The notes beneath the pieces are model-generated. The model had not been told where the DNA came from, made no database searches, and saw only the letters and a program-made list of their open reading frames with translations. A DNA stretch of 64,000 bases from Dictyostelium discoideum (lineage: Eukaryota): the NCBI GenBank assembly GCA_000004695.1, contig CM000154.2:3904001-3968000 (forward strand), read 5' to 3'. This document shows, one piece after another, positions 2,804 to 15,415 of this stretch (positions within the stretch are counted from its first letter, which is position 1; every line of letters begins with the position of its first letter). Both the position numbers and the translations under genes were made by a program.

Positions 2804-5269
2804 ATGAAAATAATTTTAACATTATCAATTTTTTTAATTTGTTTTTTACAACTTGGACAATCAGTTATTGATCCATCTCAAAATGAGGTCATGTCAGATT
2901 TACTATTTAATTTGTACGGTTATGATAAGAGTCTAGATCCATGTAACAGCAATTCTGTTGAATGTGATGATATCAATTCAACAAGTACCATCAAAACTGT
3001 TATATCTTTAAATTTACCTACTCCCTTACAAGAATATGTAATCACTCAAGATTTAACTCCACTCCAAAATTTAACCTATATGGAATTATATGAAAAAATT
3101 TATTTAACTTTATCCTTTTTTAAAAATATAAATAAATTAACTCAACTTGAAACAATGTTAGTAAAAAAAAACAATAAAAAAAAAATAAAAAATAAAAAAA
3201 AATTATATTAATATAAAAACTAATTAAAAATTAAAATAATAGAGTTACATTATCTTTTAATGTAACAATTCCAGATGATACAATTTTCCCAGCAAGTTTA
3301 GAAACATTTAGTATTTATAAACCATCAGTTCCATTAAGCATAGCAATTTTTGGATCAAATATTAAAAACTTATATGTAAATTCCCCTTTAACTGGTTACA
3401 GTATTCCAACTTTAATAAATGTCAATCCATATCTTGAAAACCTTCAACTCCCAGTAACTTACTATTCAGGTTTTCCTTCAAATATATCACTAGCATTCCC
3501 AAATTTACAATATTTAACCATCTATGTAAATAATGATATGGACCAAAATAATTACCACAACTTTTCCATTTCAAACATTGGAGTTTTTAAAAATTTAAAA
3601 GGTTTGGATATTGAATTTACTGATAGTTATAATCCTCAAGAGTTTTCAATTAATTCATTCTTATCAAATGTTCCAGTAATTGATAGTTTATATATTTATG
3701 GTCAAGGTGTAACCATTGACCCATCAGTTGGTATTATTGATCTTTCATACGTTAAGTCTAAAAAATTTTTAAGCATGTAGGTAGTAATATTCTTACAAAA
3801 TTTTTTTTAAATAATATTCACTTTTATTAACAATGTTAAAAATTAAAAAAAAAAATTTAGTAATATCCAAGAAAGTTCATTATTAAACAATTGTAAAGGT
3901 AAAAGTTTTAAATCACCAAAAAAAGCTTATTTCCGTTCTAATTATAATACATTTTCATATGCATGTATTGATTTTTCAAATCTTGCTTATTTTTATGATT
4001 ATTATAATGAATATGAACAATATTTACCAAATATTGATAATGCTCCATTACTCAATGAAATTTACATATCCGAATCTGTTGTAAGTGAATATATTTAACT
4101 TTAAATTAATTCGGAAAAAATATTATTTAATTTAACACTTTTAAATTTTTTATTTTTATTTTTTTAAAAAGGTTGTCGGTGATATTCCTGAATCATATTG
4201 TAGAATAAATTATTTGGGTTTAAACTATAACCAACTCAATGGAACAGCACCATCATGTATTCTATGTCTTGGTGGTAACAGAGGTGGTGACATAGTATTA
4301 CCAAATCCATTATTAAATTTCAATAAAACTTCTGAACCATATTGCCCAACTTTCAAAATCGATCAAAATTATACAAATTTAGTAGCAACTGATGGAATTG
4401 GAAAATTAATAATTACTGGTACTAATTTAGGTTGGTATGGAAATGATATAACACCAATTACCGCAAATTCAAAATTAGCCATTACCATTCCAAAGGGTGT
4501 TGGTACAAATAAGAGTATTACTGTTACTTTCCAAAATGGTGAACAAAGAACATTTAATTATAGTTACGTTCCTCCTTTCATTAAATCTTATGGTTTTTTG
4601 GAATTAGACAGTAATAAATATTTGACAATAAATGGTACTGGTTTCGATTTTGAGAACCCTAATATCATCACTATTAATGGTCAACAAATTACATTTTCTA
4701 TTGCATTGGGAGGAGGTGATAATGATGGTTTGATAGCATTGCCTATTGATGAATTACCAAATTTTGATAGTGAGACTAAATTTACAGTATCTACACTTGT
4801 AGGAGGTCAAAGTTCAAATGAAGTTACATTTTATTATTTCAACTCAATCAATATTACTGAAGAGAAATTAGTTTTAAATAATACAGGTGGTTCAGTAGAT
4901 ATTAATGGTTCATTTGGTACAAATAATATATCATTAGTTTCAATCTCAATCAATGGTACCAATTGTTTAGTTACATCATACACAAACTCAAAATTAACAA
5001 TTCAATATCCATCGAAACAAGTTGGTGATAATTATGTTTTAACTTTGAATGTTGGTGGTTATGCAGTTAATCTTGTTGTTGAATACATTGAAGGCGGTGA
5101 AACTCCAACACCATCAACAACACCATCAACAACACCATCAACAACACCATCAACAACTCCAAGTTCAACACCAACTCAATCACCTGGTGATGATGGATCA
5201 ACATCTTCAACATTATCAATTTCATTTTATTTAATTACTTTGTTATTATTAACACAACAATTTATTTAA
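2804..5269 (+). CDS. Surface glycoprotein paralog 1: signal peptide, LRR region, 3x IPT/TIG-like domains, (TPSTTPS)5 stalk, GPI-type C-terminal signal; 4 exons, ~734 aa
   Basis: Exons 2804-3156, 3243-3776, 3861-4080, 4172-5269. Donors GTTAGT, GTAGGT, GTAAGT; acceptors after AT-rich tracts (..aaaaag|GTTGTCGG). Frames verified against ORFs 2804.., 3538.. and 4214... N-terminus [20 protein letters not shown] is a signal peptide. '[13 protein letters not shown]' is a plant-type LRR. IPT-like blocks: '[31 protein letters not shown]', '[18 protein letters not shown]', '[22 protein letters not shown]'. C-terminus '[27 protein letters not shown]' is an omega-site plus hydrophobic tail. Confidence 0.8.
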
Positions 5270-5310
5270 TAATTAAAATAAATTTTCTTGATTTATACAA
5301 ATCTATTTTT

Positions 5311-5348
<38 letters not shown>

Positions 5349-6192
5349 TATACCTAATTTTAAACAGTTGTTTAATTGTTTTAAAAATAACAATGGTCAA
5401 GTGATTATTTGTTTAGTATGATTGATTAATATATTATTTAAGTAATATGAATAATAATTTCAAATTAACTTAATAAATGATAATAATATTTTAAATAAAA
5501 AAAAGTAAAAATAAAGAAATTTATATTTTAATTTAATAAAGTTAACAATGAATTAAATTTTTTATTTATTTATTTTTATATTTATTTATTTATGTAATCT
5601 GAAGTGATTTGAGGCTACGGTTTATCAGTAGTTGTGGTGGTGATTGTGTTGTTGATATGTTTCTTTGTTGTGCTTGTGCTTCTGTTACTAATGATATTTA
5701 TTTCTAAACAATCAAATAACTGTTTGAAAATAGTTTTTTTTTTATTGTTTTGGTAAATTAATAGTTTTTAATTATAAAAGAAAAAAAAAAATTTTTAGTG
5801 CCATTTCAGTGTGAAAACTCACTACCTTAAAGACAGCGAAATTTCAAAATAGTCCGAAAAAAAAAAAAAAAAAAAAAAATTTTTAATTCAAAATAAATAA
5901 AAGTGTTTTGGTATACTAAAAAATAAAAAAATAAACCAAACAATGTTTATTTCATATATACATATAGGTGGTTGATGGGATTAGAAAAATCTAAAAAAAA
6001 AATTAAATAAAAAATTAAAAAGGATATTATCAATAAAATTAACAAAACACAAAAATAAAATTAATTAAACAAATTTTTTTTTTTTTTTTTTTTAATAATA
6101 TTTCATATAATTTTTTTTTGAAGAATTAAGAAAAAAAATCTATTCTCAATGTAAGTAAAAAAAAAAAAAATAATGGGGTAGAGAGTCTTGAT

Positions 6193-6202
6193 TTATATTT
6201 GT

Positions 6203-6285
<83 letters not shown>

Positions 6286-6290
6286 TTTTT
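6193..6290. repeat. (ATTT)~24 tetranucleotide microsatellite
   Basis: Perfect 'tttatttatttattt...' run seen directly in the sequence. Confidence 0.95.
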
Positions 6291-13432: not shown

Positions 13433-13974
13433 TAATTAAAAATAAATAAATAAATAAATAAAAAAATCACTCATTTCGACAGTCAACAAGAAGTTAAAAG
13501 GAATATTAAAACCTTAAATTTTTTTTTTTTTTATTTGCAAACTCTTTGAGCAAGTGATTATTTGTTTAGTATATGATTGATTAATTTATTATTTAAGTAA
13601 TATGAATATTTTTTTTTAAAATTTAGAAAAAGTGATTGATTTATTATTATATTAAATCATTTATATTAATTAAATAATAAATGATTACTTTTAAAAAAAA
13701 TTTTTTTTTTTTTTATTCAATTTAATTTAAGCAATTTTTGTTTGCTTTTTGCCGCCTTAAACAAATTAAAAATGAATTTGGGTCAAAAATTAAATATATA
13801 CTTTTCAAATTATCTTAATAAATGATAATAATATTTTTAATAAAAAAGGTAAAAATAAAGAAATTTATGTTTTAATTAATATTAACAAAGTTAACAATGA
13901 ATTAAATTTTTAATTTATTTATTTTTTTTTTTGGTGTTTATACTGTAGCTGTGGTGTGTTTGAGTGTTCTACTG

Positions 13975-14547
13975 GTTATTTTGTTTGTGTATTTGGTGAG
14001 TGTTGTTGATGCTGTGATATTATTAAAAGATTGAAAATCTTGATTTTTACCAATCATTGATGCTGCATTTTGCTAAAATTTGACCTCTCTACCACCTAAA
14101 CCATTACTAATATCTACTTTTTTATCTTCTTATACCACAACTAATACTATTTCCATCAACAGAATTTAAACTTGATAAACTTGTTGAATGGTTGTTGATT
14201 TTACTGTTGTTGTTGCTGTTGTTGTGTTGTTGTTGTTGTAGTATTTTTATTATTATTTGCCAAGTATAAATCCTTTTGAATTGATATTAATAGTCTTATT
14301 GTTCCACGATAATTGGCAGTAGGGTATTTGACTATAATCAGAATGCTAAATTTTTTGTCATAAAACAGGTGGAAATAGTGGTGGTGTTGCTTGTGCTTCT
14401 GTTACAAATAAATTTGTAATAATTAGAACAAAGGAAATTATCACCAATATTAGTTTACATTAGCCTTGAGAAGGTGGATCACTAGTTCTACATAATGGAT
14501 GAATGGAATAAAAAGTATGACCCAGAACGACTAACAGAATCAACAAA
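13975..14547. repeat. GT-rich dispersed repeat, copy B; its 3' edge abuts a truncated surface-glycoprotein gene fragment
   Basis: Homologous to 1000-1480. Copy B ends '...cccagaacgactaacagaatcaac' at 14547, where copy A continues with unrelated sequence. Gene-fragment sequence ('aaattacattttatcaagcattgggaggaggtgataatgatgg') starts immediately after. Confidence 0.7.
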
Positions 14548-14548
14548 T

Positions 14549-15095
14549 TACATTTTATCAAGCATTGGGAGGAGGTGATAATGATGGTATGATAGCATTA
14601 CCTTTTGATGAATTACCAAATTTTGCTACTGAGAGTAATTTTACAGTATCTGCACTTGTAGGTGGTCAAAGTTCAAATGAAGTTACATTTTATTATTTCA
14701 ATTCAATAAATATTACTGAAGAAAAATTAGTTTTAAATAATACAGGTGGTTCGGTAGATATTAATGTTTTATTTGGTACTAATAATATATCATTCTCAAT
14801 CAATGGTACCAATTGTTTAGTTACATCATACACAAACTCAAAATTAACAATAGAATATCCATCGAAACAAGTTGGTGATAATTATGTTTTAATTTTGAAT
14901 GTTGGTGGTTATGCAGTTAATCTTGTTGTTGAATACATTGAAGGTGGTGAAACTCCAACACCATCAACAACACCATCAACAACTCCAAGTTCAACACCAA
15001 CCCAATCGTCTGATGATGATGGATCAACATCTTCAACATTATCAATTTCATTTTATTTAATTAATTTGTTATTATTAAATGAAGGATTTATTTGA
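14549..15095 (+). pseudogene. Truncated 4th paralog: only the 3' ~545 bp of exon 4 (from ..[15 protein letters not shown].. to the stop), fused at its 5' end to the dispersed repeat
   Basis: ORF 14565..15095 (176 aa) aligns to residues ~560-750 of paralogs 2 and 3. It lacks exons 1-3 and most of exon 4. It has only 3 TPSTTPS units and a 'SISING' deletion relative to 'SLVSVSING'. Confidence 0.75.
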
Positions 15096-15299
15096 TTTTT
15101 TAATAAAAATACAAAAAAAAAAAAAAACTTCAATAAAAATAATAAAATAATCCTAAATAATATTTTATTTGTTTATTATTTCTTATTTTTAAATTGCTTT
15201 TTTTTTTTTGATTATAGACTTTTATAATATTTGAAAAATTCTAAAAAAAAAAAACTAATTTCCTATCCTGACAATGTTGACAAAATAAATTGAAAGTGA

Positions 15300-15415
15300 A
15301 ACTCTATCTTAACTCTAACCTAAACACTATCAATAACTCCAAGTTCAACACCAATTCAATCTATTTATCAACATCTTTAACATTGTCAATTTCATTTTAT
15401 TTAATTCAAATAATT
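15300..15415 (+). pseudogene. Degenerate relic of the paralog C-terminus (PT stalk / GPI signal) with an internal deletion
   Basis: 'tcaataactccaagttcaacaccaattcaatctatttatcaacatctttaacattgtcaatttcattttatttaatt' aligns with '...acaactccaagttcaacaccaactcaatcacctggtgatgatggatcaacatcttcaacattatcaatttcattttatttaatt'. Confidence 0.5.

Follow-up and report, generated by a model that had tools for sequence, protein, structure and literature searches.

What kind of gene family occupies the left part of a 64,000-nucleotide (nt) stretch of the Dictyostelium discoideum genome (assembly GCA_000004695.1, contig CM000154.2, positions 3,904,001 to 3,968,000; the whole stretch is called the window here), and what might its products recognize? 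An earlier note, made from the sequence alone, had described there a tandem array of genes for secreted proteins with a leucine-rich repeat (LRR) module, three IPT/TIG domains, a proline/threonine-rich (PT) stalk and a glycosylphosphatidylinositol (GPI)-like tail, and had likened them to the Tgr (Tiger) kin-recognition proteins. Our analysis favors a birth-and-death tandem family of probably lipid-anchored surface glycoproteins, very probably GP138, in cell-cell or cell-particle recognition, a composite reading that we consider probable.

Three intact paralogs (g1, g2 and g3), one truncated copy and one relic lie head-to-tail within 12.7 kb, all on the plus strand; direct repeats, tblastn and gene models agree with the count and the coordinates proposed earlier. 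By direct-repeat analysis, the three intact copies line up in register and start 4220-4289 and 3806-3829 nt apart, close to the ~3.8-4.2 kb unit described before. In the 64-kb window, tblastn with the g3 protein found three full-length copies, one partial copy and no others. Gene models were built by a search over canonical GT..AG introns, which for each copy yielded a single consistent model with four exons; the introns are AT-rich and 82-154 nt long. Applied to orthologous loci, the same procedure recovered, without a single mismatch, six proteins that had been annotated independently (P0001, P0002, P0003, P0005, P0006 and P0007); the 4-exon structure and its intron positions are therefore common to the family, and the head-to-tail 4-exon paralogs of the earlier note are confirmed. 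The features of the array are as follows.

2804-5269, plus strand: g1, exons 2804-3156, 3243-3776, 3861-4080 and 4172-5269; 734 residues
7024-9594, plus strand: g2, exons 7024-7376, 7531-8061, 8156-8375 and 8458-9594; 746 residues, architecture as g1
10845-13432, plus strand: g3, exons 10845-11203, 11337-11870, 11984-12203 and 12287-13432; 752 residues, architecture as g1
2804-2863, plus strand: signal-like segment of g1
2864-4261, plus strand: predicted LRR head of g1
4262-4570, plus strand: Cys-rich/beta region of g1
4571-4840, plus strand: TIG2 of g1
4700-4789, plus strand: high-omega patch in TIG2 (g1 residues 546-575), with an excess of replacements among 14 family members
4841-5101, plus strand: TIG3 of g1
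5102-5197, plus strand: PT stalk of g1
5106-5161, plus strand: 12-nt minisatellite CAACACCATCAA encoding (TTPS)n, 4.7 copies in g1
9395-9486, 13221-13324 and 14956-14987: further arrays of the 12-nt minisatellite, with 7.7 copies in g2, 8.7 in g3 and 2.7 in the truncated copy
5198-5266, plus strand: GPI-signal-like tail of g1
2697-2803 (g1), 6917-7023 (g2) and 10738-10844 (g3), plus strand: conserved proximal upstream region, a direct-repeat family
about 6614-6996 and 10580-10834, plus strand: further ~300 nt of upstream similarity, g2 and g3 only
13972-14544, no strand assigned: duplicated spacer element, second copy of 977-1566
14540-15096, plus strand: truncated copy, from within TIG2 through TIG3 and a short stalk to the tail
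15323-15542, plus strand: relic with stalk end, tail and 3' flank

The truncated copy aligns to g3 residues 542-752 at 74% amino-acid identity. No ATG and no signal peptide were found in 14540-15096, and a stop codon lies directly upstream; because it lacks a start codon and a signal peptide, this copy is likely a pseudogene fragment. The relic matches the gene 3' ends at 70-79% identity, and frameshifted leftovers of the stalk end and hydrophobic tail can still be read in it (e.g., 'TPSSTPIQS'). The repeat unit had been said to include its own promoter cassette and 3' flank. This holds for the proximal ~100-400 nt upstream (~107 nt common to all three units, ~400 nt between g2 and g3) and for ~60-180 nt downstream, but not for the rest of the spacers, as the remaining 1-1.5 kb of each gave no alignment between repeat units. 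The spacer element at 13972-14544 is 76-83% identical to window positions 977-1566, and the truncated copy begins exactly at its end, which points to this boundary as a segmental duplication junction.

The same spacer element also occurs between array copies of isolate GCA_054859385.1 (L001 12886-13491). On its minus strand, an open reading frame (ORF) of 177 residues (524-1057) has sub-threshold CarboxypepD_reg and SdrD_B-like beta-sandwich matches, and may be a piece of a different surface-protein gene that the duplications took with them.

Architecture and predicted fold of the proteins

The products of g1-g3 share one architecture, composed of a signal, an LRR solenoid, a Cys-rich/beta region, two secure IPT/TIG domains, a stalk and a GPI-like tail. 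The overall layout in the earlier note is thus retained, but its domain count and stalk unit needed correction. First, only two of the three proposed IPT/TIG domains pass the Pfam TIG (PF01833) cut-off of 20.9 bits, namely g1 residues 503-592 (25.2 bits) and 593-679 (22.9 bits). The first proposed domain (g1 residues ~424-502) had no hidden Markov model match; it is beta-rich and poorly modeled, with a predicted local distance difference test score (pLDDT) of about 40-65 in both AlphaFold runs (ortholog P0007; exon 4 alone, where it stays below 50-60). For whole proteins, g1 and g3 score 24.7 and 24.2 bits against the same model, and g2 stays under the cut-off at 18.4 bits. Second, the stalk unit is not the 7-residue (TPSTTPS)n but the 4-residue TTPS, encoded by 12 nt.

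The LRR module was upheld by predicted fold and phmmer but not by Pfam. No Pfam LRR model reached its gathering score (LRR_14 19.3 bits, cut-off 40; LRR_1 18.6 bits, cut-off 20.6), and the LRRNT_2 cap had no match, also when isolated N-cap and C-terminal LRR segments were run against Pfam models. For AlphaFold, Foldseek and phmmer, the 85%-identical ortholog P0007 was used as a stand-in for the window proteins. Its AlphaFold model has a pLDDT of 80-96 over residues 20-390 and forms a solenoid of ~13-15 short parallel strands with a period of 22-28 residues. The top Foldseek matches in the PDB are the ectodomains of plant LRR receptors (GSO1/SGN3 6s6q, MIK2, RGFR1, PSKR, PEPR1 and BRL1-3), followed by the IPT domains of plexin and MET and by immunoglobulin (Ig) tandems of titin, and an exhaustive phmmer search linked residues 330-400 to proteins rich in Pfam LRR_4, LRR_8 and LRR_1. 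On this evidence, and not on Pfam LRR scores, the head is predicted to be an LRR solenoid.

The best structural matches of the head come from plants, and its last repeats fit the plant-specific motif LxxLxLxxNxLxGxIP. However, the window proteins differ from the plant receptors in having no transmembrane segment or kinase, no Pfam LRR match above threshold, no LRRNT_2 and irregular repeats. As modeled, the resemblance is one of fold class, with orthology not demonstrated. Listeria internalin A, NGL-1 and Slitrk, which are also among the Foldseek matches, likewise raise an LRR binding domain on Ig-like domains, but they belong to unrelated lineages and are anchored in other ways, and the likeness is an architectural analogy only.

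Regarding the ends of the proteins, the hydrophobic N-terminus is identical in all three (mean Kyte-Doolittle value 2.67), a scan of g1-g3 found no internal transmembrane-like window, and each protein carries 16-18 N-x-S/T sequons. At the C-terminus, small residues (GDDGSTSS) precede a brief polar stretch, and the chain then stops at a hydrophobic end, which is how a GPI-type signal is laid out. The Dictyostelium surface or adhesion glycoproteins contact site A (csA, gp80) and prespore antigen PsA can be compared here; they too have a signal peptide, an O-glycosylated stalk rich in Pro, Thr and Ser, and at the C-terminus a signal of ~25 residues for a ceramide-based lipid anchor. The window proteins, in which the anchor is sequence-inferred, show the same anatomy of an N-terminal signal and a C-terminal hydrophobic signal after small residues, without a cytoplasmic tail. 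In csA, the C-terminal 25 residues are enough to confer the ceramide-based anchor, and this anchor prolongs surface residence (PMC2119896). In other respects, csA and PsA differ from the window proteins, as their globular parts are unrelated, with no LRR or TIG match, and each is encoded by a single gene, not by an array.

The putative properties of the g1-g3 products (cleavage of the signal, a GPI anchor, glycosylation and a binding role) can be combined as follows. The N-terminal signal would lead the protein into the secretory pathway, and cleavage about 23 residues from the C-terminus would probably leave it on a GPI/ceramide-type lipid anchor. On the outer leaflet of the membrane, the O-glycosylated (TTPS)n stalk and two to three Ig-like IPT/TIG domains would form a rod, which would hold the distal, heavily N-glycosylated LRR solenoid (about 13-15 repeats) as a binding surface well above the glycocalyx. 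Because there is no cytoplasmic part, the protein would act as a ligand or co-receptor and not as a stand-alone signaling receptor: either as an adhesion or recognition ligand toward another cell or particle, or as a cis co-receptor with a signaling receptor. The lipid anchor would favor long surface residence, as for csA.

Family identity and turnover of the array

The window is AX4-type D. discoideum chromosome 5, beside DDB_G0290313, psiJ and DDB_G0290323, because one ORF (51758-54028, minus strand) is identical to the AX4 protein DDB_G0290323 (Q54G82, 757 residues, uncharacterized) and exons of psiJ (Q54G85, a PA14-domain protein; 43753-45984, minus strand) and DDB_G0290313 (Q54G87; 41248-41835, plus strand) are present. 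We consider it quite likely, from the literature and not from sequence comparison, that the array is the GP138 multigene family of this chromosome. A cluster of four GP138 genes, all of which were deleted, was reportedly described by Hata et al (2001, Gene 271:33), and the three genes and truncated copy of the window, with their ~80 kDa and presumably heavily glycosylated polypeptides, would fit it. GP138 is a small family of closely related genes of D. discoideum, as is the array in the window. The mature polypeptide of ~690 residues derived from the sequence has a predicted mass of ~80 kDa, and with 16-18 N-glycan sequons and a presumably O-glycosylated PT stalk it would be compatible with the 138 kDa apparent mass of GP138. 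In UniRef, the D. firmibasis ortholog bears the name 'Cell surface glycoprotein', and we know of no difference between GP138 and the window genes. Titles cited in two papers (PMC2443395, PMC2119896) present GP138 as a glycoprotein of sexual cell fusion that is encoded by a multigene family (Fang et al, 1993, Dev Biol 156:201; Aiba et al, 1997, J Biochem 121:238, on isoforms).

Mainly because of this identification, the family is very probably already known, and the earlier proposal of a new candidate self/non-self locus would give way to a family that the literature links to sexual cell fusion. Whatever their name, the genes lie in the long-annotated AX4 reference genome. As a discovery, the array therefore carries modest weight, since the genome is annotated and the family was very probably cloned in the 1990s. 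What we add is the explicit architecture of LRR solenoid, IPT domains, stalk and GPI-like tail, its contrast between a head that changes 3-6 times faster than the neighboring genes and a conserved anchor-proximal module, and a copy number that varies from three to at least seven among close relatives.

Homologs were found in Dictyostelium only. Other isolates named 'D. discoideum' or 'D. cf. discoideum', which come from a 2025 sampling of diverged tropical isolates and cryptic sister species (PMC12745789), carry homologs at 71-85% identity, D. firmibasis at 47-49% and D. dimigraforme at 45-46%; homologs were also found in D. citrinum, and D. purpureum has longer proteins that contain the module of the family. 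Within AX4, the paralog DDB_G0284073 is about 27-36% identical. The arrays are syntenic across genomes, with the same genes downstream, and they hold from three to at least seven full-length copies each. AX4 has three full-length copies within the window, and GCA_054859205.1 has three copies and fragments. At least six copies lie in 22 kb of GCA_054859355.1. The 36-kb array of GCA_054859385.1 has seven copies of 730-749 residues, two shorter copies and one fragment; a recent triplication accounts for three of the copies. Truncated copies and relics were seen in every genome examined.

Neighbor-joining trees were drawn for the LRR exon and for TIG2-3. In them, most copies group by array position across genomes, which indicates sets of orthologs subject to gain and loss. 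In the TIG2-3 tree, g2 clusters with g3, which indicates gene conversion or recent duplication. The lineage differences in copy number, the triplication in GCA_054859385.1, the truncated copy at the duplicated spacer and the homogenized 3' ends all bear out the growth and shrinkage of the array by duplication that the earlier note had suggested, and change by unequal exchange and duplication is a sound inference.

Several more distant proteins share parts of the architecture. P0030 (D. citrinum, 952 residues) and P0031 (D. dimigraforme, 1206 residues) form a sister family (phmmer E = 1e-42 and 5e-39) with four to six TIG2-TIG3-like pairs, then a stalk rich in P, T and Q, and finally a hydrophobic C-terminus; they lack the LRR head. 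As they repeat a TIG2-TIG3-like pair, the membrane-proximal module is therefore common to both families. P0075 (934 residues) begins with FNIP-type repeats, followed by a region like the C-terminal LRR, Cys-rich and TIG parts of the family (E = 7e-6); it is possibly related at a distance, from beyond the group-4 dictyostelids.

Divergence rates and the possible recognition partner

Rates were obtained as Nei-Gojobori-type counts on recombining sequences of a very AT-rich genome and are indicative only; they compare AX4 with diverged isolates or cryptic sister species (dS about 0.1). Between AX4 genes and their positional orthologs, synonymous divergence (dS) is 0.09-0.13, as in flanking control genes (0.08-0.13). 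Nonsynonymous divergence (dN) is 0.086-0.10 versus 0.015-0.03 in the flanks, and omega (dN/dS) is 0.7-0.95 versus about 0.2, so that amino-acid change is 3-6 times faster than in the flanking genes. Compared with one another, the three AX4 paralogs have a dS of 0.2-0.4 in exons 1-3 and of 0.03-0.05 in TIG3, and the 3' end has therefore been homogenized. By a parsimony count over 14 coding sequences, omega is 0.84 tree-wide; it lies at about 0.7-1.6 in the LRR head, and the signal peptide, TIG3, stalk and tail have values of 0.2-0.5. A patch in TIG2 (g1 residues 546-575) has 72 nonsynonymous and 7 synonymous changes (omega about 2.8; p = 0.003 uncorrected, no longer significant if corrected for about 49 overlapping windows). 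Such a pattern suits a functional protein whose membrane-proximal module is conserved and whose head is weakly constrained or diversifying: purifying selection and gene conversion would keep the anchor-proximal module uniform, and the LRR head and TIG2 patch would diverge fast between copies and lineages.

The same rates bear on whether the family has a specific recognition function at all. Redundant copies of a dispensable family could drift, with duplication, gene conversion and decay sufficing for what is seen. The tree-wide omega, its value of about 1 across the LRR head and the decayed copies in every genome examined are consistent with this, as would be the mild phenotype that a total cluster knockout is said to have. 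However, the signal peptide, TIG3, stalk and tail are constrained, full-length ORFs with conserved introns have been kept in all lineages at dS about 0.1, and the full architecture is recognizable at 27-50% identity in D. firmibasis, D. dimigraforme, D. citrinum and D. purpureum. We consider a purely drifting family quite improbable.

Recognition is the function that we consider probable, toward a cell or a particle, and a cell-adhesion or recognition locus, as the earlier note had it, is a reasonable functional class. One form of it would be kin or allorecognition in the manner of TgrB1/TgrC1, in which polymorphic copies on neighboring cells bind each other and gate cooperation in aggregation. 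The Tgr proteins are Dictyostelium surface glycoproteins with extracellular IPT/TIG domains, encoded by multigene loci with duplication, fragments and rapid divergence, and the window genes share the domains (TIG2 and TIG3), the fast amino-acid evolution, the TIG2 patch and a copy-number turnover that resembles the behavior of the tgrBC locus (PMC12745789). Beyond the common Ig-like fold, however, the analogy fails. Tgr proteins span the membrane and signal through a cytoplasmic domain (PMC12745789), whereas g1-g3 have neither a single-pass transmembrane segment nor a cytoplasmic domain and end in a GPI-like tail; their head is predicted to be an LRR solenoid on two to three Ig-like domains rather than a run of TIG repeats. 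tgrB1 and tgrC1 form a divergent pair with one shared promoter, and such pairing is a criterion for candidate functional tgrB/tgrC loci (PMC12745789, PNAS 2025), whereas the window genes are co-oriented, each with its own upstream region. In homology, a search with P0030 for a named Tgr relative gave nothing but unnamed proteins of D. citrinum and D. dimigraforme, and the weak TIG-only phmmer matches that we inspected look like bacterial multi-TIG proteins and are uninformative as relatives. In addition, the cited titles tie the family to sexual cell fusion, and the genomes compared are those of diverged isolates or sister species. Kin recognition is thus the least supported of the readings and very improbable.

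Another possible partner is a microbe or food particle. GPI-anchored LRR ectodomains could serve as feeding-stage adhesion or pattern-recognition co-receptors, with an arms race driving copy number and head sequence. The predicted head is structurally nearest to the ectodomains of plant LRR receptor kinases, several of which act in immunity, and rapid head evolution with copy-number variation is typical of immune receptors. According to reviews, D. discoideum has more than 150 LRR proteins without an assigned role as pattern-recognition receptors (PMC5758549). 'gp138B2, similar to gp138b' is filed under adhesion and mildly up with phagocytosis or growth on bacteria (PMC2443395); however, this induction is small (about 1.26 in the units of the table), gp138B2 may or may not be one of g1-g3, and the titles on antibody blocking, as cited, point to sexual fusion. 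We regard a microbial partner as unlikely.

Within the favored reading of a lipid-anchored recognition family, gamete interaction is the partner role favored by the literature titles. A stronger version would have the LRR head and TIG2 patch under diversifying selection for species- or mating-partner-specific gamete recognition, contributing to reproductive isolation in the D. discoideum complex. We hold this version to be rather unlikely; if true, it would make the family a protist counterpart of the fast-evolving fertilization proteins of animals, with a plant-like LRR ectodomain on a GPI anchor. With either a gamete or a microbe as partner, the array would be a tractable recognition locus to compare with tgrBC.

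Four points weigh against the favored reading. The identification with GP138A-D comes from the literature rather than from sequence, GPI anchoring and signal cleavage are judged from sequence anatomy only, and an omega near 1 in the head fits weak constraint equally well. Moreover, deletion of the whole GP138 cluster reportedly did not abolish sexual fusion and had a mild phenotype, which would argue against an essential role in gamete fusion.

Surroundings of the array in the window

The first 20 kb of the window have 14-34% G+C and poly-Q/N ORFs, as is typical of Dictyostelium. Exact look-up of the deduced g1-g3 proteins in the protein collection gave no match, and other AX4 proteins are present there; in the literature, we found no mention of the neighboring DDB_G identifiers. 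Window positions 6-444 match, at 85% identity, a spacer ~260 nt 3' of another array copy in GCA_054859385.1 (L001 1270-1697), which suggests that the array may continue past the left edge of the window.

Farther along, DDB_G0290323 has an adjacent paralogous ORF of 822 residues (49111-51579, minus strand) with a similar N-terminus (…EIIFWKVI.NI.LFK.I.SFL…). A 2099-residue ORF (54340-60639, minus strand) has a C-terminus that looks separase-like (peptidase C50) by eye only (…GHGSGEQY…GCKSG…). Finally, two neighboring ORFs at 25842-28459 (plus strand) are probably one intron-split gene, with a bZIP-like basic region (…RRTNQNIASRNYRQRKKVYIKEMEDKINSL…) and long poly-Q and poly-N tracts.

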